Positions 12,009-56,751 of a DNA stretch of 64,000 bases are shown here, piece after piece (position 1 is the first letter of the stretch; each line of letters opens with the position of its first letter). Under the pieces are notes generated by a model. That model was not told where the DNA came from. It did no database searches and saw only the letters and a list, made by a program, of their open reading frames with translations. The stretch covers positions 35,908 to 99,907 of the forward strand of contig JAPOXK010000011.1 of the NCBI GenBank assembly GCA_026707145.1, given 5' to 3'. Position numbers and translations under genes: made by a program. This stretch comes from Chloroflexota bacterium (lineage in GTDB: Bacteria; Chloroflexota; Dehalococcoidia; Bin125).

Positions 12009-12018
12009 ACGTCACCGC

Positions 12019-29307: not shown

Positions 29308-29421
29308 GCCGTGCCGCTTAACCCGTGGAGGCAGCCGTAGCGGTCTATGGCGCCGTCGCGCGCCCGATACGATAGGGTCGATGCCTGCCAGCAACGATCG
29401 CTCCTGCGCATGAGTCGGCGC

Positions 29422-30816
29422 ATGAACTCGCACATCTTCCGCGCCTACGACATCCGCGGCTTGGCCGAAGACGAGCTGACGCCGGCGGTGGCGGAGCGCA
29501 TCGGCGCCGCCTTCGCGACCGACGTCCGGCGCCGCGGCGGCAAAGCCTTGGCCGTGGGCCGCGACAGCCGGCCCTCTTCGCCCGCGCTCTACGCGGCGAT
29601 CATCGCCGGCGTCCGCGCCGCGGGGATCGACGTGACCGCGCTGGGACTGACCCCCAGCCCCGTCGCGGGATTCGCCACTGCGGCCTGGGCCCTGGACGGC
29701 GCCATCAACGTCACCGCCAGCCACAATCCGGTTCGCTTCAACGGCCTCAAGCTCGTGCGGGCCGGCGCCGCGGCGCTGCTGCCCGAGGAGATCCAGGAGC
29801 TGCGCGCGCTGGTGGAATCGGGCGACTTCGAGCGCGGCCGGGGCGCGCTGGCCGAGCGTGATCCCAAGCCCGAGTACGTCGCCATGCTGGCGCGGCGTTT
29901 CCCCGTGGCGCGTCCGCTGCGGGTCGTGGCCGACCCCGGCAACGGCGTTGCCACCCTCACCGGGCCCGCCGCCCTGCGCGGCGCCGGCTGCGAGGTCGTG
30001 GGCCTCTATACCGAGCTGCTGGAAGGCTTTCCCAACCATCTGCCCGATCCTCAAGCGGCGGAGACCATGGCCGACCTCGGCCGCGCCGTGCTTGAACACA
30101 AGGCCGGCTGCGGCTTCGCTTGGGACGGCGACGGCGACCGCGTGGGCCTGGTCGATGAAACCGGCCGCCGCCACGAGGCCGACTGGATCGTGGCGCTGCT
30201 GGCCCGCGACCTGCTGCGCCGTCACCCCGGCGCGCGAGTCCTGCTGGACGGCAAGTGCTCGCTCGGCGCCATCCGCGCCATCCGCGCCCGGGGCGGCGAG
30301 CCCATCCTCACCCGCACGGGCTACACCCTGCTGCGGCGCCGCATGGCCGCCGAGGGCATCCTCTTTGGCGGCGAGGCCAGCGGCCACCTCATCTTCGGCG
30401 AGGGCTACTACGGCATCGACGACGGCGTCTACGCGGCCTGCGCCGTTGCCTGCCTCGCGGCGACAGAGGACCGGCCGCTCTCCGCGCATTTCCAAGAGAT
30501 GAAGGCCGGCATGCCGCCGCTCTTCACCTCGCGCGAGATCATGATGCCCTGCGGCGACGCGGCCAAGTTCCGCGTGGCGGCGTCGGTGAACGCGCGGCTG
30601 CGCGCGGCTTGCGACGGCCTGGAGGCGGAGGGTTTACGCCTCGACTTCGGCGATGGCTGGGCGCTGGTGCGCGCCTCCAACACCAATCCCGTGCTCTCCG
30701 TGCGTTTCGAGGCCGAGAGCCGCGACCGGTACGACGCCATTCGCACCCTGATCTGGGAGGCGGTCGGCGAGCATGCCGAGGTGACCATCCCGGACGGCGT
30801 TGGGGAGCCCGCCTGA
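29422..30816 (+). CDS. phosphomannomutase/phosphoglucomutase (alpha-D-phosphohexomutase family)
   Basis: IFRAYDIRG N-terminus, active-site TASHNP, Mg-binding DGDGDR and sugar-binding GGEASGH. Confidence 0.85.
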   Translation: MNSHIFRAYDIRGLAEDELTPAVAERIGAAFATDVRRRGGKALAVGRDSRPSSPALYAAIIAGVRAAGIDVTALGLTPSPVAGFATAAWALDGAINVTASHNPVRFNGLKLVRAGAAALLPEEIQELRALVESGDFERGRGALAERDPKPEYVAMLARRFPVARPLRVVADPGNGVATLTGPAALRGAGCEVVGLYTELLEGFPNHLPDPQAAETMADLGRAVLEHKAGCGFAWDGDGDRVGLVDETGRRHEADWIVALLARDLLRRHPGARVLLDGKCSLGAIRAIRARGGEPILTRTGYTLLRRRMAAEGILFGGEASGHLIFGEGYYGIDDGVYAACAVACLAATEDRPLSAHFQEMKAGMPPLFTSREIMMPCGDAAKFRVAASVNARLRAACDGLEAEGLRLDFGDGWALVRASNTNPVLSVRFEAESRDRYDAIRTLIWEAVGEHAEVTIPDGVGEPA

Positions 30817-30818
30817 TC

Positions 30819-32285
30819 ATGCCCGCTGATCGGACCGGTGAGACGGCCCGCCGGCCACGCCTCAACCCCCATATCTTCCGCGCCTACGACATCCGCGGCG
30901 TTGTCGGCGAGGACCTCGACTCCGAGGTGGCGGCGCTGATCGGCCGTGCCTACGGCACGCACCTGCGCCGCGCCTACGGCGGCGAGACGATGGTGCTGGG
31001 CCGCGACAACCGCCCCTCCTCGCCGTCGCTGCGGGACGGCTTCGTGCGCGGCGCGCGGGCGGCGGGTGTCTCCGTCGTCGATATCGGTCTCGCGCCCTCG
31101 CCGCTGCTCTACTTCGCCGCCGCCGCCTGGGGCATCGACGGCGGCGCCAGCGTCACGGGCAGCCACAATCCCCCGCACATGAACGGCCTCAAGCTGCTCG
31201 AGCGCCGGGGCATCCCCATCGCGCCCGAGGAGATCCAGGCGGTGCGTGCACTCGCGGAGGCGCGCGACTTCGAGAGCGGCGCGGGTGGCCTGGAAGAGCG
31301 CGACCCCAAACCCGCCTACTGGGACTTCCTCGGCCGCCGCTTCTCCCTCGCGCGCTGCCTCAAGGTCGTCACCGACGCCGGCAACGGCGTCGCCGCCTGT
31401 ACCGGCCCGGAGGCGCTGCGCCGCATCGGCTGCGACGTGGCCGAGACCTACTCGGAGCTGGACGGCACCTATCCGCATCACCTGCCCGATCCCCAGGAGC
31501 CCGCGGCCATGGAGGCCCTGCGCGCCGCCGTGATCGAGCACGGCGGCGACTGCGGCATCGCCTGGGACGGCGACGGCGACCGGCTGGGCGTGGTGGACGA
31601 GCGCGGCCGGCGCCACGAGCCCGACGAGATCCTGGCCCTCCTCGCCCGCGACTTTCTCGGCCGTCACCCCGGCGCTCGCGTCCTCATCGACGTGAAGTGC
31701 TCGGCCACGGTCGTGCGCGCGATCGAGGACGCGGGTGGCCTGCCCGTCTTCGCACCCAGCGGTCACTCCCTCGGCAAGCGCAAGATGCGCGAGGAGGGCA
31801 TCCGCTTCGGCGGCGAGAGCAGCGGCCACTTCTACTTCGGTGAGGATTACCACGGTCTGGACTACGGCATCGACGACGCTGTCTTCGGCGCCTGCGCCGT
31901 CGCCGAGCTGCTGGCCCGCGGCCCCGCGCCGCTCTCCGCCCGCTTCGAGGAGATGCGCGCCGGCCTGCCGCGCCTGATCACGTCACCCGAGCTCAAGCTG
32001 CCCTGCCCCGACGCCGACAAGTTCGGCGTTGCCGCCGCCGTGGCCAAGCGCTTCCGCGGCCGCTATCCCGTGCTCGCCATTGACGGGGCGCGCATCGAGT
32101 TCCCGGGCGGCTGGGCGCTGGTGCGCGCCTCCAACACGACGCCGGTGCTGTCGGTGCGCCTCGAAGCGGAGAGCGCCGAGCGCTACGATGCGATTCGAGC
32201 GATGATCTGGGAGGCGCTGGCCGAGCACCCTGCGGTGACCATCCCCGAGGGCGCCGGCCAGCTCGGCGACGCCGCCGAGGCGTGA
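30819..32285 (+). CDS. phosphomannomutase/phosphoglucomutase paralog
   Basis: Same motifs (TGSHNP, DGDGDR, GGESSGH). The ATG lies 3 nt after the upstream stop. Confidence 0.85.
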   Translation: MPADRTGETARRPRLNPHIFRAYDIRGVVGEDLDSEVAALIGRAYGTHLRRAYGGETMVLGRDNRPSSPSLRDGFVRGARAAGVSVVDIGLAPSPLLYFAAAAWGIDGGASVTGSHNPPHMNGLKLLERRGIPIAPEEIQAVRALAEARDFESGAGGLEERDPKPAYWDFLGRRFSLARCLKVVTDAGNGVAACTGPEALRRIGCDVAETYSELDGTYPHHLPDPQEPAAMEALRAAVIEHGGDCGIAWDGDGDRLGVVDERGRRHEPDEILALLARDFLGRHPGARVLIDVKCSATVVRAIEDAGGLPVFAPSGHSLGKRKMREEGIRFGGESSGHFYFGEDYHGLDYGIDDAVFGACAVAELLARGPAPLSARFEEMRAGLPRLITSPELKLPCPDADKFGVAAAVAKRFRGRYPVLAIDGARIEFPGGWALVRASNTTPVLSVRLEAESAERYDAIRAMIWEALAEHPAVTIPEGAGQLGDAAEA

Positions 32286-33224: not shown

Positions 33225-33778
33225 GGGGTGTGCGAGTCGGTTGCTCTCGCCTCGGGCGCAGCCCGCGCTCTGCGGATGCTCGCGGAAATAACCCGCTTCA
33301 TGCGACGTAAGGGCACTTGGGATCTGGCTGGGCTGTGGAAAACGATTGCTGCGGTAGCAGGGCTGTGGAGAAGTGCCGGGAGGGCCGGGGAAATCGTGGA
33401 AAATTCTGCTGAATACGGCGCGATAGGGCGAAGATGGTGACTGCTCGACGAGGAAACGCGCGCGTCTCTACAGGCCGGAATAGATGGCATTGAATTTATT
33501 GACGTAAAGATTAACGGACGGGCAGTTCGTCCTGGCGAACCTCAGCACGCCGGCGGCCGCGCTCTTCAGGCAGGGCGTGACGATCGCCTGGACGTTCTTG
33601 CCGGTGAATTGCGCTGGGTCGCCTACAACCCCGTCGTGGGGTTGGTGGACTTCTCCATCGCCCTCGCGACCTGCTCTCGGTCGTCTCCCCCCGCGATCAG
33701 ACGCTCGGCGGATAGCGTGCCGATCTAGCATGGCCGGACCGGACATGCCCGTGGCGGGCGGCCCGGAGAGGAGCGCTC

Positions 33779-36700
33779 ATGCGGCTGCCGATCGCGCGCT
33801 GGGCGCTGGTCCTAGCTGGGGCGGCCCTGCTGGTCGCGGCCGCGCTGGACGGACCCGCCCGCCCGCTGCTCGCGCAAGAGTCCGGCGAACCGCTGGAGGA
33901 GGTGGCAACGGATCGGGCTGCCCTGATGGCGCTCTACGCCGCCACGGACGGCCCCAACTGGACGAACGACCACCACTGGGGCAGCGGCGAGCCGCTTGGG
34001 CTCTGGGACGGCGTCACCGCCGATGCCCAGGGCCGCGTCATCCGTCTGATACTTTCTGGCAATAACTTGGTCGGTACCCTGCCGCCCGAGCTGGGCAACC
34101 TCGCGAACTTGCAGCTCCTCTGGCTTGGTCAGAACCAATTGAGCGGGCCGCTGCCATCCGAGTGGGGCCGTCTCATCAACCTCGAGCACTTGGCCTTGGC
34201 GAGGAATCGGTTGATCGGGCCGCTGCCCGGTGCGCTCGGCGACCTTGTCAACTTGGAGCACCTGGACCTCGGCTACAACCAGTTGAGCGGGCCGCTGCCG
34301 CCCGAGTGGGGCCAACTCGCCAGCTTGGAGTACCTGGACCTCAGCTACAACCAGTTGAGCGGGCCGCTGCCGCCCCAATGGGGCCAGCTCACCGCCCTGC
34401 GAAACCTTCAGCTTCACGTCAATCACTTGAATGGCCCGCTGCCGCCCGAGTGGGACCAGCTGACCAACTTGGGTCTCCTTTACGCTGGCGGGAACCGCTT
34501 GACCGGTCCGCTTCCCGCCGAGTGGAGCAAGCTCCCGCGCCTGACCTCTCTCGGGCTGAGCGGGAACCGCTTGACCGGTCCGCTGCCAACCGAATGGAGC
34601 AAGCTCGCCGGCCTCACCAGCCTGGGCTTGGGGGGCAATCAGCTCAGCGGGCCGATCCCGCCGGGGTGGGGCATTCTCTCCAATCTCTACCACCTCAGTC
34701 TCGCTCCGAATCCCGGCTTGAGCGGATGCATCCCGTACGGCTGGCGCTATCTGGTGGCCGGTCCCGATCCCTGGCGGGTCCCCCGCACGCATGACCTCCA
34801 CCGCTTGGCGCTGCCCTTCTGCCTGCTGCGCGATCTGCGACTGCGCGGTACGACCCTCGATCCGCCTTTCGCCGGCGGCACAGCCCCCCACGCTGCCCCC
34901 AGGGCCTACACCGCCGGCGTGGCCGCCAGCATCACCGAGACGGCCGTGACGGCGACGCTCCACGATCCCGCCGACCGTCCGATCATCCGCAGAGGAGGAC
35001 GAACCTACGCCAGCGGCGAGCCACTGCTACTCGACCTGGGACCGAACCGCATCACGATCATGGTCACTCCTGCGGATACCACCTTCCCCATCGCGGAGGT
35101 CGTCGTCGTCACGGTGACGCGCGGGCCGGCCGAGACGCCCGAAGCGCCGGACCCCGCCGACGTGGCAGCGGACCGGGCCGCGCTGCTGGCGCTCTATGAC
35201 CAGACGGACGGGCCGAATTGGACGGCCGACAGCAACTGGGGCAGCGATGCGCCGCTCCGTGATTGGCACGGCGTCACGATCGGCGTCGACGGCCGTGTCG
35301 GCGGCCTGGCGCTTGCGGGCAACAACCTAACGGGAACTCTGCCGTCCGCGCTGGGGGACCTCGGCAGCCTGACGGAGCTGGATCTGGGCGATAACCGATT
35401 GCAGGGGGCGATTCCAGAGGCGCTGGGCAACCTCACCGACTTGGAGTCCCTGTCGCTGGACGGCAACGAGTTGAGCGGGCCGATCCCGGTCCTCCTGCAC
35501 CGCCTCCGTAACCTGCGGGAGCTGGATCTGAGCGGCAATCGCTTCAGCGGAGTGATTCCGGCCTGGGTGGACATGCTCGTCAACCTGACCGACATCAATC
35601 TCGCGGAGAACCGGTTGAGGGGGCTGCTGCCGACCGCGCTGGGCCGCCTCGCCGACTTGGAAACCTTGGACCTCGGCGGCAACCTGTTCTGGGGGCTGCT
35701 GCCGGCCGCGTGGAACGCACTCGCCAACCTGGAGTCCCTCTCCCTTGCCGGTAACCGTTTACGCGGGCCGCTGCCGGCCGCCTGGGGGGAGCTCGTCAAC
35801 CTGGGGGCGCTGGACCTGAGCGGCAACCGCCTGGAGGGGCCCCTGCCGGCCGCGTGGGCTGAACTCACCAATCTGGAGGCCCTCTCGCTTGCCGGCAACG
35901 GCTTCCGCGGGCCGCTGCCGGCCGCCTGGGGGGAGCTCGTCAACCTGGAGGCGCTGGATCTGAGCGGCAACCAGTTGGAAGGACCCCTGCCACCCTGGCT
36001 GGGCGCTCTCGCCGATCTGGAGGTCTTGGACCTCAGCAACAACCGCTTGTACGGGCCGATCCCGGCTTCGTTGGGCAACCTCACCGGCTTGTGGTCTCTC
36101 TCCCTCGCCGAAAACCGCCTGGGTGGGCCCGTCCCGGCCGCGCTGGGCGATCTCAGCGGTCTCCGGTTCATCCGCCTCGCGGGCAACGCCCTGCAGGGGT
36201 GTCTGCCCTACGGTCTCCACGATCTGCTGGCTGCGCCGGAGCACGCGGGCCTCCCGGCCCACGACTTCTCCGCCCTGCGCCTGCCCTTCTGCCTGCTGCG
36301 CGATCTGCGGCTGGCGGACGCCACGCTGGAGTCGCCCTTCGCCGCCGACAGGGGCACCTACATCGCCGCCGTGAATCGCAGTGTGACGGAGGCGGCCCTG
36401 ATGGTGACCCTGCAGAACGCCAACGACGCCGTCACCATTCACAAGGGAGGGGAGAGCTACAGCAACGGTGCGCCGCTGCCGCTCGACCTGGGGCCGAATC
36501 GCATCACCATCACCGTCATCCCCGTGGACGGCACACCGCTGCAGAACGTCACCGTGACGCTGATCCGCTTGGCCACCGATCCGATCAGCCTGGACCTGCG
36601 GGCGGGCGGCGATCTCGTCGTCGTGCCGGCCGGGGCGGCCACGACAGCGGCCGATCTGTTCGGGGAGACGGACGTGGCCAGCGTCTGGAAATACACCCGC

Positions 36701-37423
36701 GCCACCCGGGCCTGGGACCGCTCCTACCTGCCCGCCCTCGAGACGGGGGACTTCCCCATCGTCGGCGGCGACGTGCTCTGGGTCGTCTCCCCGGTGGAGC
36801 AGACGCTGCCGGTGGCGGGGAGGCCGCCTCCGGCGTCGCCCGTCGCCGGCCCCATCACCTTGGATCTGCAGGCGGGCGGCGACCTGGTGGTCGTGCCGGC
36901 GGGGACGCCCACGACCGCGGCTGCGCTCTTCGACGGTACGGACGTGGCAGTCGTCTGGCAGTACAACCGGGCCACCCGCGCTTGGGACCGCGCCTATCTG
37001 CCCGCTCTCGGGACGGGGGACTTCCCCATCGCCCCTGGCGACGTGCTCTGGGTGGTGGCGCCGCGCGCCCTCACCGTCACCGCAGGAGCGCCCGCCGCCG
37101 CGGTGACGGGACGCGTCTACTTCGGCGGCGGGGAGGTGACCCTGCCGGAGGGCGCCGTCGTGACCGTGCGGCTGCTGGACACTTCCCTCGCCGATGCCCC
37201 GTCGACGACCCTCGGCGAGCAGATCATCCGGGACGCGGGGAGGCTGCCGCTGGCGTTCCGCGTCGGCTACGACCCAGCCGCCATCATGGAGGGCTACGAG
37301 TACTCCCTGCAGGCCACCGTCCGCCATGACGGCCGCCTGCTCTACATCAACGACACGGTGCACCCGGTGCTGACGCGCGGCGCTCCTCGGAACCGCGACA
37401 TCGAAGTCATCCGCGTGCAGTAG
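33779..37423 (+). CDS. giant secreted LRR + cadherin-like protein with two C-terminal GWNLV-type modules and a YbaY-like tail
   Basis: Signal peptide, then two tandem units of LRRNT-like cap (DRAALMALY..DGPNW), ~12 plant-type 24-aa LRRs (LxxLxLxxNxLSGPLP) and a Cys-containing C-cap (GCIPYG...LPFCLLRDL) followed by a cadherin-like beta sandwich. Two shared modules and a YbaY-like domain end the protein. Confidence 0.85.
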   Translation: MRLPIARWALVLAGAALLVAAALDGPARPLLAQESGEPLEEVATDRAALMALYAATDGPNWTNDHHWGSGEPLGLWDGVTADAQGRVIRLILSGNNLVGTLPPELGNLANLQLLWLGQNQLSGPLPSEWGRLINLEHLALARNRLIGPLPGALGDLVNLEHLDLGYNQLSGPLPPEWGQLASLEYLDLSYNQLSGPLPPQWGQLTALRNLQLHVNHLNGPLPPEWDQLTNLGLLYAGGNRLTGPLPAEWSKLPRLTSLGLSGNRLTGPLPTEWSKLAGLTSLGLGGNQLSGPIPPGWGILSNLYHLSLAPNPGLSGCIPYGWRYLVAGPDPWRVPRTHDLHRLALPFCLLRDLRLRGTTLDPPFAGGTAPHAAPRAYTAGVAASITETAVTATLHDPADRPIIRRGGRTYASGEPLLLDLGPNRITIMVTPADTTFPIAEVVVVTVTRGPAETPEAPDPADVAADRAALLALYDQTDGPNWTADSNWGSDAPLRDWHGVTIGVDGRVGGLALAGNNLTGTLPSALGDLGSLTELDLGDNRLQGAIPEALGNLTDLESLSLDGNELSGPIPVLLHRLRNLRELDLSGNRFSGVIPAWVDMLVNLTDINLAENRLRGLLPTALGRLADLETLDLGGNLFWGLLPAAWNALANLESLSLAGNRLRGPLPAAWGELVNLGALDLSGNRLEGPLPAAWAELTNLEALSLAGNGFRGPLPAAWGELVNLEALDLSGNQLEGPLPPWLGALADLEVLDLSNNRLYGPIPASLGNLTGLWSLSLAENRLGGPVPAALGDLSGLRFIRLAGNALQGCLPYGLHDLLAAPEHAGLPAHDFSALRLPFCLLRDLRLADATLESPFAADRGTYIAAVNRSVTEAALMVTLQNANDAVTIHKGGESYSNGAPLPLDLGPNRITITVIPVDGTPLQNVTVTLIRLATDPISLDLRAGGDLVVVPAGAATTAADLFGETDVASVWKYTRATRAWDRSYLPALETGDFPIVGGDVLWVVSPVEQTLPVAGRPPPASPVAGPITLDLQAGGDLVVVPAGTPTTAAALFDGTDVAVVWQYNRATRAWDRAYLPALGTGDFPIAPGDVLWVVAPRALTVTAGAPAAAVTGRVYFGGGEVTLPEGAVVTVRLLDTSLADAPSTTLGEQIIRDAGRLPLAFRVGYDPAAIMEGYEYSLQATVRHDGRLLYINDTVHPVLTRGAPRNRDIEVIRVQ

Positions 37424-37566
37424 CGGGCATGCCGCCGACCGTCGGCCAGCCTCTTCGGCGAACATGGCAGTGACGGTCGTGTGGAGGTACGGCCGGGCCA
37501 CGCAGGCCCCGGCGATCACCGACCAAGGTACGCACGAGAACACAAGCGAGCGCCCGTTGGCCTAGC

Positions 37567-38310
37567 ATGGCCGGGCCTGCGGGCCGGACGTGGCGAGTGG
37601 AGGAGCATGCGATGTCACGCGGACTCGGCGACGGAGCTTCCCAGAGAGATTTCCAGCGAGGCGGGGCCTGGGAGCGGCTGCGGCCCCGGCGCGCCGTCGC
37701 CCGCTGGGCTGCGGCCCTGGCCGGCATGGCGCTGCTGATCGCCGCCGCCTTGGCCGGACCCGCGGCGCTGTTCGCGCAGGAGGACGGCGGCGAGACGGAG
37801 GCGGCGGGCAGCGTCACCGTGATCCTGCACCCCGTCGGCGACTTTTACGTGCTGCCGGCCAGCGCGGCGCCCACGACGGCGTCCGCCCTCTTCGGGGACG
37901 TGGAGCTGTCGAGCCTCTGGAAGCATAGGACCGGCCGGGACTGGATCGCGTACGATCCCGCCACCGGCGCGGAGGACTTCTCCATCGCGGGCGGGGACCT
38001 GCTCTGGATCGTGGTCCCCCGCCTCCAGGAGATCATCGTGCCGCTGACGGAGAGCCCCGTCCCGCCCATCCACAGCATTACCCTGACCCTGCGCGCGGGC
38101 GGCGGCTTCTACCGTGTGCCGGAGGGATCGCCCACGACGGCGGCCCTCCTCTTCGGAGGCACGGACGTGACGGTCGTCTGGGGCTACAACAGCGTCTCGC
38201 GGGCATGGGACCGCTCCTATGACCCGGTCCAAAACCAGGGCAATTTCGTGATCGAAGCCGACGACCTCCTCTGGATCGAGGCGCCGCGGGCCCAGACCGT
38301 CGGCGGCTAG
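37567..38310 (+). CDS. small secreted protein composed only of two GWNLV-type modules
   Basis: Signal peptide plus two tandem copies of the module (VPAG.PTTAA.LFG...VW.Y......WD.SY.P......F.I..GD.LW), ending QTVGG. Alternative start at 37612. Confidence 0.7.
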   Translation: MAGPAGRTWRVEEHAMSRGLGDGASQRDFQRGGAWERLRPRRAVARWAAALAGMALLIAAALAGPAALFAQEDGGETEAAGSVTVILHPVGDFYVLPASAAPTTASALFGDVELSSLWKHRTGRDWIAYDPATGAEDFSIAGGDLLWIVVPRLQEIIVPLTESPVPPIHSITLTLRAGGGFYRVPEGSPTTAALLFGGTDVTVVWGYNSVSRAWDRSYDPVQNQGNFVIEADDLLWIEAPRAQTVGG

Positions 38311-38317
38311 ACTCACG

Positions 38318-41300
38318 GTGCTCCCATGGCGATCATGGCAAGCCGGGACGGGTGCGATGCGGCACGGACGCAGCGACGCGAAGGGCCGTGGCAGGGACGG
38401 CGTCCCCTGGGCGCGGCTCTCCAGCGCGCGCCTGGTGTTGGTCCTGGCGGCTCTGGCCCTGCTGATCGGGGCCGCGCTGGCCGGCCCTGCCCGCCCCCTG
38501 CGCGCGCAGGAGGCCTCCGGCACGGCGGCGACGGACCGGGCCGCCCTGATGGCGCTCTACGAGGCCACGGGCGGCGCTCGCTGGACGGTCAATCACAACT
38601 GGGGCAGCAGCGCGCCGCTCGGCACCTGGCACGGCGTCACGGTCTCCGTCCAGGGCCGGGTCACCCATCTCTCGCTCTTTGCCAACAACCTGATCGGGGG
38701 CGTGCCGGACGAGCTGGGCAACCTCGACGCCCTGACCTATCTCTCGCTGGAGGAGAATCGCTTGCGCGGCCCCATTCCCGCCGCGCTGGGCGACCTCACC
38801 GCCTTGGAGTCCCTGGCCCTGGGCGGCAACGGCTTGAACCGGGAGATCCCGGACGCCTTGGGCCGCCTCACCCGCCTGCAACTGCTGTCGCTGGCCGATA
38901 ACCTCCTGCGGGGGCCGCTGCCGGACTGGCTCGGCGATCTGACCGATCTCCAGTACCTGGCGCTGGACTCCAACGATCTCAGCGGGCCGCTGCCGGCGGC
39001 CCTGGGCGGCCTCACCGAACTGCGGGAGATCGATCTGGGCGATAACCGCTTGAGCGGGGAGATCCCGGCCACGTTCGGCAACCTCGCCGAGCTGCGGTAC
39101 CTGGCGCTGGACTCCAACCAGCTCAGCGGGGGGATTCCGGCGGCCCTGGGCGGCCTCGCCAACCTGGAGGATCTGCACCTGGACGGCAACCGCCTGACCG
39201 GGCCGATCCCGGCGGCGCTGGGCGGCCTCCCCCACCTCTACACGCTGCGCCTGCAGGGCAACAGCTTGAGCGGGGGGATTCCGGCGGCGCTGGGCGGCCT
39301 CGTCAACCTGCAGCAGCTTTGGCTGGGGCGGAACCAGTTCAGCGGGCCGCTGCCGGCGGCGCTGGGCGGCCTCGCCAACCTCACGGAGCTGCGCCTGGAG
39401 AGCAACCGCCTGAGCGGGGGGATTCCGGCGGCCCTGGGCGGCCTCGCCAGCCTGGCGGCGCTCGACCTGGGCGGCAACCGCTTGGAGGGGACGATCCCGC
39501 GCGCGCTGGACGATCTCTCCAGCCTGGAGTTCATCCGCCTCACGCCCAACGCCGTGTTCACGGGCTGCATCCCCCACGGCCTGCGCGCCCTGCTGGCCGT
39601 CCCCGTGCCCGAGGGCGCCCCCGCGGCCCATGATTTCTCCTCCCTGATCCTGCCCTTCTGCCTCCTGCGCGACCTCCAGTTCAGCGACGTGACCCTCGAA
39701 CCGCCCTTCACCGGCGGCACGACCCCCTTCATCGCCGTGACGAATCCGGCCGCCGCCTACAGCGCCGCCGTGCCCGGCAGCGTCACGGAGACGGTCGTGA
39801 CGGCGGCCCTCTACGATCCCCGCGACGAGATCACCATCCACCTGGCCGGGACGATCTACGCCAGCGGCGACACGCTGCCGCTCAGCCCGGGGCCGAACCG
39901 CATCACCATCGAGGTCGCGCCCGCGGACGAGGCCCTCCCGATCCCGGAGTTCGTGGTCGTGACGCTGACGCGCGGGACGGACGCGCATCCGGTCCCGCCC
40001 GATCACGGCGGCGAGGCGGCCGACCGGGCCGCGCTGCTGGCGCTTTACGCCGCCACGGACGGCCCCAACTGGTCGGCCGGCGACAACTGGGGCAGCGACG
40101 CGCCGCTCGGGAGCTGGCAGGGCGTCACCACGGCGGCCGACGGCCGCGTGATCAGCCTGACTCTGGCGCACAACAACCTGACGGGGACCCTGCCGGCCGC
40201 CCTGGGCGACCTCGCCGATCTGACGGAGCTGGATCTGAGCGGCAACCGCTTGAGCGGATCGCTGCCGCCGGCGCTGGGCGGCCTCCGCAACCTGGAGGAG
40301 CTGGACCTGCACGACAACCGCTTGAGCGGATCGCTGCCGGCGGCGCTCGGCGGCCTCGTCAATCTGGAGACGCTGGACCTGGGGGGCAACCGGCTGAGCG
40401 GGGCGATTCCGGCGACCGTGGGCGCCCTCGTCGATCTGGAGACGCTGGACCTGCACGGCAACCGCCTGCGCGGGCCGCTGCCGCCGGCCCTGGTCGGCCT
40501 CACCGATCTGGAGGAGCTGGACCTGGGCGGCAACCGCCTGCGCGGGCCGCTGCCGCCCGCCCTGGGCGATCTCACCGATCTGGAGGAGCTGGACCTGGGC
40601 GGCAACCGCCTGGACGGGTCGCTGCCGGCCGCGTGGAGCGATCTCACCGATCTGGAGGAGCTGGACCTGGGCGGCAACCGCCTGGACGGGCCGCTGCCGC
40701 CCTGGCTGGGCGACCTGGCCCATCTGGAGCGGCTGGACCTGCGCGACAATCGCTTCCGGGGGCCGCTGCCGGCCGCCCTGGGCGGCCTCGCCGACCTGCG
40801 GATCATCCACCTGGCGGGCAACGCCCTCAGCGGCTGCATCCCCCACGGCCTGCGCGCCCTGCCGGCGACGGCCGGGGGCGAGCCGGCCCACGACCTGTCC
40901 GATCTGGGTTTGCCCTTCTGCCTGCTGCGCGATCTGGAGCTGACGGGCGCCACCCTGGATCCTCCCTTCAGCGCCGCGGGCGAGGCCTACAGCGCCGCCG
41001 TGGGCCGCAGCGTGACCGAGACGGTCCTGACGGCGGTCCTGCACGACGACGGCGACGCCGTCACCATCCGCACGGGCGGGCAGGACTACGCCAGCGGCGA
41101 CGCCCTGCCCCTCGACCTGGGCGCCAATCCCATCACGGTCACCGTCGTTCCCGCGGACGGCACGCGCGCGCAGACCGTCACCGTCACGGTGACCCGCCTG
41201 ACCGTCGATCCGATCACCCTGCACCTGCGCGAGGGCGGCGACCTCGTGCCCGTGCCGGCGGGGGCGGCCACGACGGCGGCCGCCCTCTTCGGGGGCGCGG

Positions 41301-41446
41301 AGGTCTCCAGCGCCTGGCGGTACAACCGGGAGACGCGGCGCTGGGATTTCCCCTACCTGCCGGCCAGCGACCGGGGCAGCTTCCCCATCGCGGCCGGCGA
41401 CGTGCTCTGGGTGGTGGCGCCCCGCGCCCAGACGGTCGGCGGCTGA
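38318..41446 (+). CDS. giant secreted LRR + cadherin-like protein, paralog, with C-terminal GWNLV-type module
   Basis: Same duplicated LRRNT-LRR-Ccap-cadherin architecture as 33779..37423. One C-terminal module ending QTVGG. GTG start 7 nt after the upstream stop (alternative ATG at 38357). Confidence 0.85.
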   Translation: MLPWRSWQAGTGAMRHGRSDAKGRGRDGVPWARLSSARLVLVLAALALLIGAALAGPARPLRAQEASGTAATDRAALMALYEATGGARWTVNHNWGSSAPLGTWHGVTVSVQGRVTHLSLFANNLIGGVPDELGNLDALTYLSLEENRLRGPIPAALGDLTALESLALGGNGLNREIPDALGRLTRLQLLSLADNLLRGPLPDWLGDLTDLQYLALDSNDLSGPLPAALGGLTELREIDLGDNRLSGEIPATFGNLAELRYLALDSNQLSGGIPAALGGLANLEDLHLDGNRLTGPIPAALGGLPHLYTLRLQGNSLSGGIPAALGGLVNLQQLWLGRNQFSGPLPAALGGLANLTELRLESNRLSGGIPAALGGLASLAALDLGGNRLEGTIPRALDDLSSLEFIRLTPNAVFTGCIPHGLRALLAVPVPEGAPAAHDFSSLILPFCLLRDLQFSDVTLEPPFTGGTTPFIAVTNPAAAYSAAVPGSVTETVVTAALYDPRDEITIHLAGTIYASGDTLPLSPGPNRITIEVAPADEALPIPEFVVVTLTRGTDAHPVPPDHGGEAADRAALLALYAATDGPNWSAGDNWGSDAPLGSWQGVTTAADGRVISLTLAHNNLTGTLPAALGDLADLTELDLSGNRLSGSLPPALGGLRNLEELDLHDNRLSGSLPAALGGLVNLETLDLGGNRLSGAIPATVGALVDLETLDLHGNRLRGPLPPALVGLTDLEELDLGGNRLRGPLPPALGDLTDLEELDLGGNRLDGSLPAAWSDLTDLEELDLGGNRLDGPLPPWLGDLAHLERLDLRDNRFRGPLPAALGGLADLRIIHLAGNALSGCIPHGLRALPATAGGEPAHDLSDLGLPFCLLRDLELTGATLDPPFSAAGEAYSAAVGRSVTETVLTAVLHDDGDAVTIRTGGQDYASGDALPLDLGANPITVTVVPADGTRAQTVTVTVTRLTVDPITLHLREGGDLVPVPAGAATTAAALFGGAEVSSAWRYNRETRRWDFPYLPASDRGSFPIAAGDVLWVVAPRAQTVGG
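40440..40740 (+). repeat. near-identical 72-bp in-frame tandem repeats (LRR units) inside LRR gene
   Basis: ctggaggagctggacctgggcggcaaccgcctg(c/g)gcgggccgctgccgcc recurs four or more times with a 72-bp period (one 24-aa LRR each). Confidence 0.7.
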
Positions 41447-41639
41447 GGCCGCCCTGCCACGCCCCCGATCCACGCCGGATCGGGCGCGAATGTGCTATCT
41501 TTCCGCTGTACGCAGATACGCGCTTCGGTCGATGGCCCCGCTTCGCCGGACCGGCCAAGGGAGTGGGAGGCGCGTCATGGCGAAGACCAGCACCCCGTTC
41601 ACGGACGCGCGCCGCGCTGCCCCGCCGAAGGTGTAGCCG

Positions 41640-42512: not shown

Positions 42513-42806
42513 GTGCCGATGTCTGCGTCTCAGCTCATTGCAGAGGCCATGCAGCAGGTGGGATCACCAGAGAGTATCCGGCAGGACCTGGAAGAGTTCA
42601 GGGAAAGTGCGCTCGCCCTCTCCTCTGATCATCCCCGACTCATTGATGAGTATCGTGAGGAGTGGGTTGCCGTCCATAGGGGAGAGGTGGTCGCGCACGG
42701 GCGGACAATGGCTGCGGTACTCAAGCAGGTCGACGCTGCGGGACTGCCGCGCTCCAAGATCGTCGTGCGATTTATCACCGAGGACCCGCGTACTCTCATC
42801 CTGTGA
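42513..42806 (+). CDS. small protein, partner of retropepsin-like protease (DUF5678-like?)
   Basis: 97 aa. Overlaps the downstream gene by 4 nt (ATGA). Family assignment is from memory and tentative. Confidence 0.45.
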   Translation: MPMSASQLIAEAMQQVGSPESIRQDLEEFRESALALSSDHPRLIDEYREEWVAVHRGEVVAHGRTMAAVLKQVDAAGLPRSKIVVRFITEDPRTLIL

Positions 42807-43255
42807 CACTGCGGGGACGGTTCGGAAACACCACGGGGAGGCCGTATGTGGAGGGCCTCCTCAGCTTCCCACGGCCGAATTTGCTTGGGGTCGTGTCGTT
42901 TCTCGTTGACACGGGAGCGGATACGTCCATCATTGGTCCTCCCGATGCAGTTCGCATCGGCGTGCAAGAGGACCAACTGACAGAGAAAGCTGAATCCTTC
43001 GGCATTGGAGGAAAGATCTCCTGCTCTATCGAGCCCGCTGTCCTCATCTTCCGGGACGACAGCGGCGCGGCCCACTTCTACGCCCGCACGGTCCAGATCA
43101 TGCCGCTCAGAAGACGAGACATGGCGGCATTGCCTTCGCTGCTCGGCCGTGACGTGTTGGATCATTGGCGCGTGACCTATGATCCGCAGGTTTCACTGCT
43201 GGAGATCGATATTCACTCTGCGGATCGGACGTTAAAACCGCCGACGATCCTCTAG
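42803..43255 (+). CDS. retropepsin-like (clan AA) aspartic protease
   Basis: LVDTGADTSIIG matches the retroviral/ Ddi1-type D(T/S)G(A) active-site loop. 150 aa. Confidence 0.7.
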   Translation: MTLRGRFGNTTGRPYVEGLLSFPRPNLLGVVSFLVDTGADTSIIGPPDAVRIGVQEDQLTEKAESFGIGGKISCSIEPAVLIFRDDSGAAHFYARTVQIMPLRRRDMAALPSLLGRDVLDHWRVTYDPQVSLLEIDIHSADRTLKPPTIL

Positions 43256-44573: not shown

Positions 44574-45613
44574 GCGATGAGATCGCTGTAGCGGAGCCGC
44601 CGTCCCTGCACCCTCGCGAGATTCCCGCCGACTGAGGCGCGGCCGCCGACGGGCAGGCATACGTATGCCGCCGCCCGTGCCGCGTCCAACGGCCCACTTG
44701 ATTGGGGGACGATCTACGATCGTGCCGAAACGCCGATGAGGAGCAGTCCCCAGCGGAATGGCATGCGTCCACGTTGTGGGTCCACGGAGCAGCCGGTAGC
44801 GTTCGGGGCTAGCGGGCGAGTAATCTGGGTGGCGGGCGTGGCGTACCATCCGCCGTCCATGAGCGCTTCGATGCCCTGGAGGAGCGCCTCGGCGCCATGA
44901 AGCGCGAGCTCTTGGCCGCGATCAAGCGGCAGGAAAAGACGGTTCCCGATGCCTCCATTCCGCGCAACCGTGAAGCCACTCCTCAGTGCTGGCGGCGCGT
45001 TCCTCTGGGCGCTCGCGCGATTCGCCGGCGTTGCGCTCTGGACGATCGGCGTCCGGGTTGGGCGCATGGCCGCTGCGGGCGTCCGCAAGGGCGGGAAAGC
45101 TCTGGGCCGGAAGCTGCGCGGAACGCCGCCGGATCAGACGAACGACACGCCCTAGGCGGCCAAGTCCCGGTAGCGGAGCCGCTTCCCCGCCCCTATCCCG
45201 CCCAGCCGCTGCGATCAAGGGGCCGCACGGCACAAATAGTGGATAAGCCGGGGAAAGCCGTGGGCAAATGGTGGACGGCGCCCCCGAATTCCCGCGCGGC
45301 CGCGGCCGCGCGGGCGAGAAGGTGAAGCGGCGGTAAAATGGGCGGAAAATGTCGCGGAGCGCGTTGTATCCCGCCGCGGATTCCCCATAGCATGGCTCGC
45401 AAACCGGGGCGGTTCGCCGCCCGATTTTCCCTATGGCCGCGCCCGTCTCGGGCGGGGACGGCCGCAGCCGCCGGGCTGATCGCCCGGACCAGCCCGGAAG
45501 AGGAGGAGCGCAAGAAGAGAAGCACCACACCAGAGCGCATGCCCCCCGGCATGCACGAACCAAAAGGGATTGAAAACCCTCTCACAAGGAGGAACGCATT
45601 GAGTAAAGCAATC

Positions 45614-47476
45614 ATGAAGAAAGGGATGGGCCTGCGGCTCGTCGCGCTGGCGGCGGTCGTCGCGGCCGTCGCCCTCGCCGGCGCCGTCTTCACGCAGGGC
45701 GCCGACGCGGCGGGCCCCGGGGACACCGTGAACGTGCCCGCGGCCGCCGACGGGAGCGTCGACGGGGCCACGGTCACCGAGTTCAACTCCGGTGCGAACG
45801 ACGGGATCGCCCACTTCGAGATCGACGAGTCGAGCACGGCCAGCGGCAGCTTCGCCTACAACGGCGGGCAGTCGATCAGCTGTCAGGACGGCGCCAAGTG
45901 TGACGCCGACGACACGGACAACGAGGTCGCGGTGAAGGTCAACGTCGACGATGACTCGCCCAACGGCTTCATCATCGTCAACGTCACCGACCTGAACGCC
46001 GCCACCGGCGGCGAGTCGCGCGAGCTGATCAGCGTCAACACGGACGATCGGGTAGTGGCGATCGACGCCACGACCCCGACGCCGAACCCGGCGATCTCCG
46101 CCACCGGCGCCGACACCGTGACCATCACCGCCAAGCTGACCAACCCCTCGGAGGGCGGCGTCAACGGCAAGCCCGTGGTCATCTTCACGACCCTGGGCCT
46201 CCTTGACGACTGTGGCGGCAACGCGGACGACGCGGGCGCGGACGGCGTCCAGGCCTGCTCGGAGACCAGCCACACGAACGATGTCGACAGCAATGCCGAC
46301 ACCGATAACGACGGCTACGTGCAGGTCGAGCTGGAAGCCACCTCCCGCGCGGGCGTGGCCACGGTCACCTTCACTGCGGGCGACCTGAGCGACTCCGTGA
46401 CCGTGGTCTTCTACGGTGCCGCCGACGCCATCGCCGCGGAGGCGATGCAGTCCTCGATCTCCAACGTCAACGACGAGACCTTCATCGTCGTGACGGTCAC
46501 CGACAGCGGCGGCAACCCGGTCGATGACCACACGATCGCGGCGCGCTCGCAAGGCGCGGACGGCGGCGACGCGGACGGCGACGGCGTCGTCGGACCGGGC
46601 GCCAAGGCCGTGGAAGTCATGGCGGACTACAACAAGGACTTCGTCCACCCGACGGACTCCAAGAAGAACATCCCCGCCTGTGGTGACGAGCTCGACGACT
46701 CCGCAACCACGGACGTGGACGAAGGTGCCCGCTTCGACGGCGGCACCGGCGCCGCCGGGAAGTGCGTCATTCATGTGTCGTCGACCTTCACGGACGACGA
46801 CAACCCGGCCAACGACACCAGCCGCGGTACGAACACCGTGCACATCGCGGGTCCTGGCGCCACTGCCACCGACACGTCCAAGGACGCAGCGGTGGCGATC
46901 CAGGTCGGCGGCGCGCCGGCCGCGATCTCCAGCGACGCTCCGGCGAACGTGGATCCGCTGAGCGCGACTGAGGTCACGGTGAGCGTGGTCGACGACGAAG
47001 GCGTCCCCGTGGGCGAAGTCGTCACCTCGGTCAACCAGATCGAGGGTTCCGGCCGGGTCATCGCCGGTGACGGTGCCGGCATGACCAGCGACGGCGCGGT
47101 GAAGTTCACCTACCTGGCGCCGCAGACGCCGGGCACGGCCGTCTTCCGCGTGACCGCGGGCGAGGGCGCAGGCCAGATCGCGTCCAGCATCGTGGTCACC
47201 ATCGGCGAGATGGCTGCTGAGGAGCCGCCGGCTCCGACCGAGAGCGCCGTCTCACTGGACCTCAGTGCGGGCGGGAACTACTACTCCGTCCCGGCCAACA
47301 GCGTGCCCACGACCGCGAGTGCCCTCTTCGACGGCACGAGCGTCTCGGTTGCCTGGAAGTGGGAGAACGGCTCCTGGACGAGCTACATCCCGGCGATCGG
47401 CAGCACCGACTTCCTCGTCACCTCTGGCGACATCCTCTGGATCGTCGCCGGCAGCGCCGAGACCGTCGGCGGCTAG
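45614..47476 (+). CDS. secreted Ig-like (Big) domain surface protein with C-terminal GWNLV-type module
   Basis: Signal peptide (MKKGMGLRLVALAAVVAAVALAGA), acidic repetitive Ig-like segments (VTVT, DSGGNPV) and a terminal module ending ETVGG. AGGAGG upstream. Alternative TTG start at 45599. Confidence 0.75.
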   Translation: MKKGMGLRLVALAAVVAAVALAGAVFTQGADAAGPGDTVNVPAAADGSVDGATVTEFNSGANDGIAHFEIDESSTASGSFAYNGGQSISCQDGAKCDADDTDNEVAVKVNVDDDSPNGFIIVNVTDLNAATGGESRELISVNTDDRVVAIDATTPTPNPAISATGADTVTITAKLTNPSEGGVNGKPVVIFTTLGLLDDCGGNADDAGADGVQACSETSHTNDVDSNADTDNDGYVQVELEATSRAGVATVTFTAGDLSDSVTVVFYGAADAIAAEAMQSSISNVNDETFIVVTVTDSGGNPVDDHTIAARSQGADGGDADGDGVVGPGAKAVEVMADYNKDFVHPTDSKKNIPACGDELDDSATTDVDEGARFDGGTGAAGKCVIHVSSTFTDDDNPANDTSRGTNTVHIAGPGATATDTSKDAAVAIQVGGAPAAISSDAPANVDPLSATEVTVSVVDDEGVPVGEVVTSVNQIEGSGRVIAGDGAGMTSDGAVKFTYLAPQTPGTAVFRVTAGEGAGQIASSIVVTIGEMAAEEPPAPTESAVSLDLSAGGNYYSVPANSVPTTASALFDGTSVSVAWKWENGSWTSYIPAIGSTDFLVTSGDILWIVAGSAETVGG

Positions 47477-47576: not shown

Positions 47577-48158
47577 ATGGCGAGTATTCGTAAGGGGTGG
47601 CGCATGGCGGTGGTCGCGAGCGCGGCCGCCCTCGCCCTGGCGCTTGTCACGAGCGCCTTCGCGCAGGCGCCGCCCGCTCCCGACCATGCGTTCTACGGCA
47701 GCGCCGCCGACGGCTCCGGTGCCACCATCGACGGGGAACCCGCTCCAGACGGGACCGTCGTGACGGCCACGAACCAGGACGGCCAAGCCGTGGGATCGGA
47801 CACCGTCAGTGGCGGCATCTGGATGATCAACGTCGGCAGTGACAACGCCAGCGTCACCTTTGCCGTCAACGGCATCGCCGCCGAAGGATCGCACGGCGTG
47901 ACAAGCGGCAGCGTCAGCGAGGTCACCCTGGCGGTGACCACGGCCGCGGACGAGCCGGACGAGCCGGTCGAGCCGGTCGAACCACCGGTCGAGCCGGTCC
48001 AGCCGGAGACGCCGACCGGGCTGCCCAACACGGGCAGCGGCGGCCTGGCGGACACCAGCGGCGGCTTCCCGCTGCTGCCGGTGGCCCTGGTCATCTCGGC
48101 CCTGGTCGCGCTGGGCGGCGTGGCGGTCACCCGCCGCGCTGGCATCGGCGCGCGCTAG
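47577..48158 (+). CDS. LPXTG-anchored small surface protein
   Basis: Signal peptide and a PEPVEPVEP linker. The sorting signal is LPNTG, a hydrophobic segment FPLLPVALVISALVALGGVAV and a positive tail TRRAGIGAR. Confidence 0.75.
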   Translation: MASIRKGWRMAVVASAAALALALVTSAFAQAPPAPDHAFYGSAADGSGATIDGEPAPDGTVVTATNQDGQAVGSDTVSGGIWMINVGSDNASVTFAVNGIAAEGSHGVTSGSVSEVTLAVTTAADEPDEPVEPVEPPVEPVQPETPTGLPNTGSGGLADTSGGFPLLPVALVISALVALGGVAVTRRAGIGAR

Positions 48159-48445: not shown

Positions 48446-50149
48446 ATGCAGATGCGCCCAGCACCGGACCCCAGCACGCGTTTCCGCGGCGCGCCCCTGG
48501 GCGGGCGCGCGCGGCGCCCCCGCCTCTTTCTGCTCCTGTTGCTGACGGCGCTGGCGGCCGGGCTGCTCCTGGCGCTGCTGCCCGCCGCCACGCAGGCGGC
48601 GCCGGCCTCGGTGCGCTCCCTCAGCGCCTCCCCGACCAAGGTCGCGGCGGCCGGCGGCCAAACCACCATCCACGTGACCGTCGCCTGGAACGCGGCCACG
48701 GAGAGCGGCCTGCGGGTGGCGCTGGCGAGCACCCTGGGCGCCTTCGGCAGCGCCGGCGGCCCCAGCCGCGTCAGCGTGGCGCTGAGCGACCAGGGGGACG
48801 GCACGGCCCTCGCCACGGCCACGCTGGTGGGCGACGGGCGGCTGGGCAACGCCGCCGTCACGGCCCGCGTGGGCGCCAGCGTGCGCTCGGCCACGGTCAC
48901 CTTCGTGGGCGCGCCGGCCACGGTCGTCTTCGAGACGCCCAGCGCCGACGCCGTCCTGGACGCGGCCACGCCGTCGCGCCTGATCGTGCAGGTGCGCGAC
49001 AGCGTCGGCGTCGAGGTGTCCGGCGCCTCCGTCACCTTCACCACCGACGCCGGCCAGCTCCTGGCCAGCTCCACGCCGCCCGCCGCCGACGCGGCCGCCT
49101 CCGCGGTCTACACGATTCGCAGCGACAGCCGGGGCAAGGCCTCGGCCTTCCTCCACGGCGATCCCGGCCCCGTGCGCGTGCGCGCCGCCGCCGGCGCCGC
49201 CACGGCCAGCCTTTCGCTGACGCTGCACGGCCCCCCGGCCCAGCTGGAGCTGACGGCGCTGACGCGGCGGGTCAACCTGGGCGATACGCCCTTCGCCGCG
49301 CCGGCGGGCACGCTGGTGGCCTCGCTCTTCGACGAGGGCGGGCGGCCCGTGCCGCGCGTCAGCGTGCGCTTCAGCAGCGACGTCGATGGCGTCACCGTCG
49401 TGCAGAGCGGCGAGGGCGAGTCCGGCGTCACGGGCGCCAGCGGGCGCGCCGCGGCCCACGTCTCGGCGGCGGACGCGGCGGCAGCCGGCGCCGTGACGAT
49501 CGCGGCCTGGGCGGACGAGCTCTCGGCCAGCACCACGATCCAGATCGTGGGGCCGGCCACCGATCTGCGGCTGGCGATCACGGCCGATGACGAGGCCGGG
49601 GCCTACCGCGTGGTGGCGCTGGTCAGCGACGCCGGCGGCCGGGCCGTGCCCAGCGGCTACCGGGTGCGCTTCAGCGCCGTCGGCGCGACGCCCGATGCCG
49701 AGGCCACATTCGATCCGGTCACGGCCGAGACGGTGAACGGCCTCGCCTTCACGCGCTTCACCCTGGAGGGCGACTCCCTCGACGGGGTGCGGGTGCGGGC
49801 CCAGGTCTCCGATATCGAGATGGACGTGCGCGACAGCGCTCCCCTGCCCGCGACGGACGCGGCCAGCATCGCGCTGGCGGCCGGGCTGAACCTGATCACC
49901 TGGCCGGGCCCGTCGCTGACGGCGTCGGCGGCGGTGGCGGCGATCGCGGAGCAGGTGACGGCGCTGTGGCGCTACGACGAAGCCGACGGCTGGCAGGGCT
50001 ACTTCCCCGGCACCGATCTGGGAACCGACTTCGAGCTCGCCGCGGGCGACTCGCTGGCGGTCACCGCCAGCGCCGACGTCGTCTGGACGGTCCCCGAGGA
50101 GGAGGAGGACGAAGAGGACGAGGACGGAGAGGGCGGGGACGCGGGCTAG
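48446..50149 (+). CDS. secreted Ig-like repeat protein with divergent C-terminal module and poly-acidic tail
   Basis: Signal peptide, repeated ~95-aa Ig-like segments (VTFTTDAGQL, VRFSSDVDGV) and the module variant LAAGLNLITWPG...WRYDEADGWQGYFP...GDSLAV. Ends EEEEDEEDEDGEGGDAG. Confidence 0.7.
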   Translation: MQMRPAPDPSTRFRGAPLGGRARRPRLFLLLLLTALAAGLLLALLPAATQAAPASVRSLSASPTKVAAAGGQTTIHVTVAWNAATESGLRVALASTLGAFGSAGGPSRVSVALSDQGDGTALATATLVGDGRLGNAAVTARVGASVRSATVTFVGAPATVVFETPSADAVLDAATPSRLIVQVRDSVGVEVSGASVTFTTDAGQLLASSTPPAADAAASAVYTIRSDSRGKASAFLHGDPGPVRVRAAAGAATASLSLTLHGPPAQLELTALTRRVNLGDTPFAAPAGTLVASLFDEGGRPVPRVSVRFSSDVDGVTVVQSGEGESGVTGASGRAAAHVSAADAAAAGAVTIAAWADELSASTTIQIVGPATDLRLAITADDEAGAYRVVALVSDAGGRAVPSGYRVRFSAVGATPDAEATFDPVTAETVNGLAFTRFTLEGDSLDGVRVRAQVSDIEMDVRDSAPLPATDAASIALAAGLNLITWPGPSLTASAAVAAIAEQVTALWRYDEADGWQGYFPGTDLGTDFELAAGDSLAVTASADVVWTVPEEEEDEEDEDGEGGDAG

Positions 50150-52550: not shown

Positions 52551-52823
52551 GGACGCCGGGGAGCCCGCGCCCGCCCGCGCTCCCTGCATCAGGGGCGCGA
52601 AACCGCCGCCGCCACGAGCCTTTCAGCGGGCGCGGCCCGCATCCTCACCCCGGCGGCGCGCCGGCGATGGCGCGGGCCGCTTCGCCTTCCGCCCCGGCCG
52701 CCCGGGGGCCCGGCGGCCAGGTCGCCTTCCTTCGCCTATCTCCTATGATTGATCGAGGAGCCGGCGGGCGCCGCGCGTTCGGGATCCGTCCCTGCGGAGG
52801 CGTTCGCGCGAGGGAAAGCGGTC

Positions 52824-54056: not shown

Positions 54057-54167
54057 CAGCGTTCTCCCATTGCTCTTCTGGCCTCTCGGGAGCGACGCCC
54101 ATACGATTGTCTGGAGCGGCCGGTGGCGGTGGCCGGCTTTGCAAGCAAGAGCCGGCCGGGAGTCTTG

Positions 54168-56673: not shown

Positions 56674-56751
56674 GGTGGGCGTCGCCTAGAGGCCTAAGGC
56701 GCCAGGTTGTGGCCCTGGTATTCGTGGGTTCGAATCCCACCGTCCACCCCA
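56674..56751 (+). tRNA. tRNA-His (GTG)
   Basis: Manual fold: G-1, acceptor GTGGGCG/CGTCCAC (one G-T wobble), D arm GCCT/AGGC, anticodon arm CCAGG-ttGTGgc-CCTGG, T arm GTGGG-TTCGAAT-CCCAC, discriminator C, encoded CCA. Confidence 0.85.

Follow-up and report, generated by a model that had tools for sequence, protein, structure and literature searches.

A conserved protein of a leader and two tandem modules, encoded beside LRR genes in a Dehalococcoidia bacterium, and the uncatalogued module family to which it belongs

In Listeria, the GW-module tails of InlB and Ami hold these proteins at the cell surface non-covalently, and module-only paralogues of binding proteins are also known, among them LysM-only effectors (Ecp6) and the CWB2-only and SLH-only proteins. 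Here we describe a protein from a Dehalococcoidia bacterium that consists of a leader and two tandem modules, and that is encoded between two LRR genes whose products carry the same type of module. The window, by which we mean the whole 64-kb stretch of DNA that was analysed, encodes seven module-bearing secreted proteins inside ~23 kb, and the modules (each ~77 aa long) were delimited with a module HMM built from six window copies. The features of the stand-alone gene, hereafter the di-module gene, and of its two LRR neighbours are as follows.

33779..37423, + strand: LRR1, from Pfam and HMM matches a leader, two successive units of LRR array plus cadherin-like domain, two modules and a YscW/YbaY-like domain
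36581-36814 and 36851-37087, + strand: LRR1 module pair, from the module HMM
37599..37605, + strand: Shine-Dalgarno-like GGAGGAG, read from the sequence, 6 nt before ATG 37612
37612..38310, + strand: revised di-module CDS, 232 aa plus stop, a 100% match to P0001 / MCY3886604.1
37612..37776, + strand: leader of 55 aa, from a hydropathy scan, with an Arg-rich n-region and a ~20-residue hydrophobic core
37810..38043, + strand: module 1, of a type specific to the stand-alone gene (HMM domain E = 4.6e-35; pLDDT ~90)
38044..38073, + strand: Pro-rich 10-aa linker LTESPVPPIH between modules 1 and 2
38074..38307, + strand: module 2, which ends QTVGG (HMM domain E = 1.7e-40; single-module AF2 pLDDT 97.4)
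38357..41446, + strand: LRR2, from Pfam and HMM matches a leader, two successive units of LRR plus cadherin-like domain and one terminal module; start revised from GTG 38318
41210-41443, + strand: LRR2 single terminal module, from the module HMM

The preliminary description of this DNA took the di-module gene to be the unbroken + strand ORF of 37567..38310, which encodes 247 aa from its longest ATG and has the C-terminus ...PRAQTVGG, and it read the product as a signal peptide followed by two copies of a shared module. Both the ORF and this layout are borne out, the latter by a putative Sec-type leader and two HMM matches, but the length is not: the gene almost certainly starts at ATG 37612, 15 codons inside that ORF, because the N-terminus M-x-R-G-L-G occurs in all orthologues and a Shine-Dalgarno sequence lies upstream of that ATG. 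Indeed, a purine-rich GGAG-type Shine-Dalgarno sequence is found 7-9 nt before the orthologous ATG in all four genomes compared (the window and the related loci L005, L001 and L003), and the resulting 232-aa product is identical to MCY3886604.1 ('MAG: hypothetical protein OXG19_02715, Chloroflexi bacterium'). The distance of 7 nt that had been given between the stop and the second LRR gene depended on the longest-ORF start of the latter, GTG 38318; since the LRR2 orthologues begin MRRG, which fits ATG 38357 (MRHG), that distance has to be rejected and the gap is 46 nt.

The length of an ORF is no proof of coding in this window, because its GC content is 70% and long spurious ORFs abound, for example an antisense ORF of 302 aa (37615..38523) that runs across the di-module gene. 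We consider the gene to be coding based on the contrast between its codon positions (GC3 of 91% versus GC2 of ~54-55%), on its intact orthologues and on the confident predicted fold of its product. Intact orthologues of 221-232 aa, with 51-88% identity, are present in at least six related Dehalococcoidia assemblies; P0002-P0007 have identities of 88, 60-64 and 51-61% to the di-module protein and the same layout, and a search for related loci with the orthologue alignment returned Dehalococcoidia MAGs only. The gene is in frame in all four of its DNA copies, six of the seven orthologues have a mature part of 177-178 aa and one has 183 aa, although their amino-acid sequences diverge by up to 49%, and 71 columns of the orthologue alignment are invariant, including Trp, Tyr, Gly, Pro and Asp core positions. 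We regard it as near-certain that the ORF is functional and encodes a small, probably exported protein made up of a leader and one heterotypic module pair; the suspicion that it might be a degenerate fragment of a larger gene fails, as the gene is intact in six related assemblies. Three other pairs look as if they stood alone (P0009, P0018 and P0089) but probably belong to larger genes that are split or have a wrongly called start, of which they would be the tails; these were excluded from the orthologues.

The hydrophobic core of the leader, with Kyte-Doolittle values of up to 2.1, is followed by a G-P helix breaker and then by L-F-A/Q-E, in which the slash marks the presumed point of cleavage. 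The -3/-1 rule is the established criterion for signal peptidase I sites, and by this rule L-F-A/Q-E is a putative signal peptidase I site; the motif L-x-[AG]/[QE]-[ED] is kept in all seven di-module orthologues and also occurs in the LRR1 and LRR2 leaders. The predicted mature di-module protein has 177 aa and is acidic, with a pI of 4.3; mature pI values lie between 4.2 and 4.65, and the net charge of the modules varies from -7 to +3 without pattern. The combination of LPXTG, hydrophobic stretch and basic tail is absent from the di-module C-terminus, which has no TM segment. The leader as a whole, M-x-R-G-L-G ... ALLIAAALAGPA..L.A/QE, is common to the LRR genes and the di-module gene, and recurs as far away as a distantly related genome of the Dehalococcoidia (loci with this leader are 33779.., 37612.. 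and 38357.. in the window, 7119.. in L001 and 4303.. in L007). So conserved a leader is unusual, and it may represent a dedicated signal-peptide class or a uniformity that is kept by gene conversion.

The single module is predicted by AF2 (pLDDT 97.4, pTM 0.85) to be a small beta-sandwich of seven to eight strands with one short helix, and each 77-aa module contains 8-11 Trp, Tyr or Phe residues. In the prediction for the full 232-aa protein, both modules have a pLDDT of ~90, residues 1-64 are disordered and the pTM is 0.64; since one placed module could give a pTM of at most ~0.34 (78/232), the model suggests that the two modules are confidently positioned relative to each other. No match for the 232-aa protein was found in Pfam or NCBIfam (including SLH, cohesin, dockerin, LysM and CWB), none for the module in a PDB sequence profile search, and no significant one for the module fold with Foldseek against PDB and BFVD (E ≥0.7, TM ≤0.45). 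The best-ranked Foldseek neighbours, CBM6 and CBM_E1, are at chance level (E 0.7-0.8, TM 0.29-0.34). Similarly, the PADLOC and PHROGs models, for anti-phage defence and phage, gave no match to the di-module protein.

The remaining modules of the window are found in the following proteins.

47246..47473, + strand: terminal module of the secreted protein ORF 45338..47476 (HMM E = 1.2e-33)
49865..50098, + strand: diverged module near the C-terminus of ORF 48446..50149, which has a Pfam Big_1 match (HMM E = 9e-6, and alignment)
53829..54053, + strand: terminal module of ORF 52749..54056 (HMM E = 3.3e-17)
56046..56546, + strand: two diverged 'GFN/GW'-type tandem modules, C-terminal in the beta-helix protein ORF 54123..56552

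Several window proteins, LRR2 among them, have one module only, whereas the LRR2 orthologues have two terminal modules. The diverged pair of the beta-helix protein bridges the local subfamily and a broad family. When ten window modules were used as a profile in an exhaustive search, the representatives of 1,552 clusters (50% identity) matched at E ≤1e-3, and 184 of them at E ≤1e-10; the HMM built here defines an uncatalogued family of tandem 'GWN...GD.LW' modules, with the broad-family consensus L.PGWNLVGW.G...A...WDA..Q.F...P..P..L..L..GD..W...W. Exactly two modules are present in 122 of the 162 best family members (75%), joined by linkers of mostly 5-14 aa; the modules lie ≤15 aa from the C-terminus in 98 of these 162 and are N-proximal in 36. 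The median identity within pairs is 40% family-wide and exceeds 70% in only 6 of 113 pairs, all from the clade studied here. The di-module protein, with its 10-aa linker and 39% identity between heterotypic modules, fits this norm. When modules were compared with profiles for the two positions of the pair, all local modules scored higher on the position-2 profile, module 1 less so.

The modules are combined with LRR, cadherin-like, Kelch, FG-GAP, Big_1, beta-helix/NosD, trypsin-like peptidase and DPBB domains, about half of the full-length family members have an N-terminal hydrophobic leader, and in none of the full-length members examined are the modules followed by a TM segment or an LPXTG tail. 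A 1,497-aa protein at L007 (4303..8796) has a leader, an LRR array, a cadherin-like domain, the module pair and then ~730 aa of RCC1 repeats; because this pair is internal, with the repeats following QTVGG, we take QTVGG to be the last strand of the domain and not a C-terminal sorting signal. The tandem heterotypic pair is thus the standard unit of the family, which is found in Dehalococcoidia/Chloroflexota and some other bacteria, mainly as the C-terminal part of secreted surface proteins that are adhesin-like or enzymatic; look-ups of the clusters gave almost no taxonomy beyond a single broad-family member from the Syntrophorhabdales. An origin of the organism as a sponge symbiont is conceivable. 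Homologue searches based on a word index, for which module profiles were used, gave few hits, none of them with a name that was informative, and a description of the module was not found in literature searched for the motif, the accessions, and LRR or sorting domains of Chloroflexi/Dehalococcoidia.

The preliminary description had the di-module gene wedged between two LRR genes and proposed looking for that order in relatives. The neighbours of the gene, locus by locus, are as follows.

Window: LRR1 upstream, LRR2 downstream
L001: LRR gene upstream, LRR gene downstream
L003/L004: 3-hydroxyacyl-CoA dehydrogenase gene upstream, LRR gene downstream
L013: 3-hydroxyacyl-CoA dehydrogenase gene upstream, LRR gene downstream
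L005: IS1595 transposase gene plus module relic upstream, LRR2 in three ORFs downstream
L012: LRR gene upstream, LRR2 missing downstream

A same-strand LRR gene adjoins the di-module gene in all six assemblies, so adjacency to at least one LRR gene is conserved, but the full order LRR, di-module, LRR holds only for the window and L001 (two of six) and is not a conserved arrangement. LRR1 is missing in L003 and L013 and is disrupted in L005, where the transposase gene and module relic stand in its place. The gap to the downstream LRR gene is 46 nt in the window and 47-95 nt in relatives (L001, L003/L004, L005 and L013). A scan for promoters and terminators, which is uninformative in such GC-rich DNA, showed no terminator-like site between the di-module and LRR genes on the + strand; based on the short gap (46-95 nt) and on this result, the di-module gene is probably co-transcribed with the LRR gene. 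In L005, the closest relative, the LRR2 orthologue (10795..14215) is divided into three ORFs of 639, 114 and 238 aa, which may be either a real pseudogenisation or the result of indel errors in a long-read assembly. The YscW/YbaY-like lipoprotein-type domain that ends LRR1 (~37091-37405, PF09619, E = 1.6e-24) is not in LRR2, and a tail of modules plus YscW as in LRR1 recurs in P0008 from a related contig.

The rates of change at this locus differ from those of its surroundings. The dN/dS of the di-module gene is ~0.6-1.0 (0.46-1.2 by region) and that of LRR2 is 0.53-0.63, compared to 0.14-0.16 for flanking housekeeping genes; similarly, relative to L003, the flanking PGM/PMM and dehydrogenase are 96% identical and the di-module gene 53%. 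DNA identity to L003 is 94.5% over 23502-33342, 80% over 37681-41437 and 92-94% beyond 42.4 kb. Because identity drops to 80% between flanks at 92-94.5%, the block of LRR and di-module genes is a hypervariable and probably recombining island. The dN/dS of 0.6-1.0 could also reflect weak constraint on the di-module gene. Identity to L005 is a uniform 89-90%, and the trees disagree: in the flanks the nearest locus to the window is L003, but within an island of ~33400..41500 it is L005.

In a tree of the modules, those in first position of the stand-alone gene, from four genomes, group together as a separate clade, while both modules of each LRR tail group by genome and are 81-88% identical in the LRR2 tails, a pattern that indicates concerted evolution or gene conversion of the LRR-tail pairs. 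The LRR1 pair of the window (36581-37087) is 73% identical, and tail pairs of LRR/cadherin proteins are 73-88% identical within a genome; other homogenised tail pairs lie at 13578-14078 and 6552-7052 in L001, 13581-14075 in L003 and 13709-14212 in L005. Since module 1 is a separate lineage and the heterotypic pair, at 39% identity, looks ancestral, the stand-alone pair has not been copied recently from an LRR tail. Neighbouring genes share a repeated unit that consists of module, spacer and leader, with L001 9718-10188 aligning to window 38075-38538, and this fits an origin of the genes in a tandem array. Because this junction is itself repeated between neighbours, the adjacency to LRR genes may be a mere product of birth by tandem duplication.

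Several other genes of the window deserve mention. The + strand ORF 47577..48158 encodes a 193-aa protein in which a signal peptide is combined with LPNTG, a hydrophobic stretch or TM segment and an RRAGIGAR tail, and which carries no module; NCBIfam gave only a weak GVDTG_CTERM match to it. Since this is the classic layout of a sortase substrate, the organism probably has sortase and wall anchoring beside the module system. Tandem phosphoglucomutase/phosphomannomutase paralogues (29347..30816 and ~30858..32285, + strand, with ~70% DNA identity) are kept as a pair in L003 and L005. On the + strand, a DUF5678 gene (42513..42806) overlaps by 4 nt a gene for a retropepsin-like aspartyl protease (42803..43255; PF13650, PF00077), a two-gene cassette that L003 also has, in rearranged form. 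A DUF3800 protein is encoded between module-bearing genes (50200..50985, + strand), in a stretch of ~50.2-52.7 kb that is poorly conserved in relatives. The sole Rfam matches in the window are two + strand tRNA genes (56675..56748 and 59452..59525).

With respect to function, we tentatively favour a reading in which the module pair is a unit of non-covalent surface retention or pairing and the di-module protein is a tail-only paralogue, and we give this somewhat less than an even chance. The two modules would pack as one rigid unit, and the pair would bind either an envelope component or other module pairs and so keep its carrier attached to the cell surface without a covalent bond. The stand-alone protein, for whose export the leader that it shares with the LRR proteins would serve, would have no passenger but would take up the same sites on the surface, and would in this way set the density or arrangement of the neighbouring LRR adhesins; the fast diversification of the locus would be like that of exposed surface proteins. 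We lean to this reading because the pair occurs in exported proteins, usually at a terminus and with varied partner domains, because these proteins have no other anchor, and because the LPNTG protein, which has one, is without the module. The N-proximal pairs (36 of the 162 best members) and the internal pair of L007 count against it, as does the acidic charge of the mature protein, which speaks against the GW mechanism in particular.

Alternatively, as the preliminary description proposed, the stand-alone pair might be an adaptor or scaffold that binds the module tails of the LRR proteins and cross-links or presents them, as a small partner of the cohesin type. This could explain the conserved adjacency to an LRR gene and the probable operon with it, as well as the restriction of the heterotypic module 1 to the stand-alone gene; the single-module proteins of the window, LRR2 included, could need a partner, and the modules appear to pack pairwise. 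However, the stand-alone gene is kept although the LRR2 orthologues own two modules, and it occurs in L012 without a downstream LRR2. The net charges of the LRR tails and of the stand-alone modules also do not complement each other consistently, and the protein has no anchor of its own once the leader is cleaved, so that we consider an adaptor role unlikely.

We are equally doubtful that the protein is a free, lectin-like binder or decoy for a ligand outside the cell, for example a glycan of the host or matrix, or a receptor of phage or host, and acts as a soluble blocker in the manner of LysM-only effectors. The module is a small aromatic-rich beta-sandwich, similar in size to the all-beta and aromatic-rich CBM6 and CBM_E1, which are among its non-significant top Foldseek matches; the locus evolves quickly and recombines, much as genes at an interface with a host or phage do, and the neighbours encode eukaryote-like LRR and cadherin-like proteins. 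The fold matches are nevertheless at chance level (E ≥0.7, TM ≤0.45), and the module has neither a significant structural match nor any sequence similarity to CBM6 or CBM_E1.

A bolder version, which we think quite improbable, combines a docking role with pairing: the module pair would be an unrecognised class of surface-docking unit in Chloroflexota and other bacteria, with the stand-alone protein and its unique module 1 as a dedicated partner that arrays the fast-diversifying LRR adhesins, a minimal analogue of cohesin and dockerin with a fold for which no relative has been solved. Less probable still is a C-terminal secretion or sorting tag like the C-terminal domain (CTD) of T9SS, with the stand-alone gene as a substrate without cargo. 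That domain (Por_Secre_tail) is likewise a beta-sandwich of ~80 aa with which many secreted proteins that are otherwise unrelated end, in ~60% of the best family members the modules are the last part of the chain, and QTVGG is the conserved ending of the local copies; but no Por_Secre_tail/TIGR04183 or other sorting-domain HMM matched, the modules here are tandem and sometimes N-proximal (36 of the 162 best members) or internal (L007), and the organism belongs to the Dehalococcoidia and not to the Bacteroidota. Finally, although the leader and module 2 are homologous to the LRR genes, the repeated junction points to unequal crossing-over, dN/dS is high and the window has many long chance ORFs, it is scarcely credible that the gene is a non-functional remnant of an LRR gene without its middle part, or a spurious high-GC ORF, given the intact frame and fixed mature length across at least six assemblies at up to 49% amino-acid divergence, the conserved Shine-Dalgarno sequence, the invariant core residues, the separate conserved lineage of module 1 and the high-confidence fold.

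The di-module gene is thus real and conserved, and the retention role of the tail is a candidate function, possible rather than probable. On present evidence, the stand-alone gene is an unsurprising, minimal paralogue and involves no new mechanism; the novelty lies more in the module family. The module is common (at least 1,552 clusters at 50% identity) and folds confidently in prediction, yet it is absent from Pfam, NCBIfam and PDB, and in uncultured Dehalococcoidia it is attached to secreted proteins, both adhesin-like and enzymatic. No natural version of the unit is smaller than the stand-alone protein, which has 177 aa beyond its leader and is the obvious construct for determining structure and ligand, and the target of the tail, once known, would show how this group displays eukaryote-like LRR proteins.

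If the preferred reading of surface retention is correct, the nearest parallel would be the GW modules of Listeria (InlB, Ami and Auto). In both cases, tandem, beta-rich C-terminal modules of ~80 aa are found on an LRR protein and on enzymes (wall enzymes in Listeria), a G-W-N motif occurs in the broad family described here, and a separate LPXTG system exists alongside the GW modules, as the LPNTG protein stands here beside the module proteins. The two nevertheless differ in sequence, since there is no GW/SH3_8 Pfam match at E ≤1; in fold, which was not found to be the SH3-like one of InlB; and in charge and number, since GW modules are strongly basic and present in 3-8 copies whereas the modules here form an acidic to neutral pair. 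GW-like binding to polyanionic wall polymers is therefore unlikely, because the mature protein is acidic and the charge of its modules patternless. The di-module protein is unrelated in fold and sequence family to the LysM-only, CWB2-only and SLH-only proteins, but by analogy it would be, as they are, a secreted binding or anchoring module that stands alone, without a catalytic or adhesive passenger.
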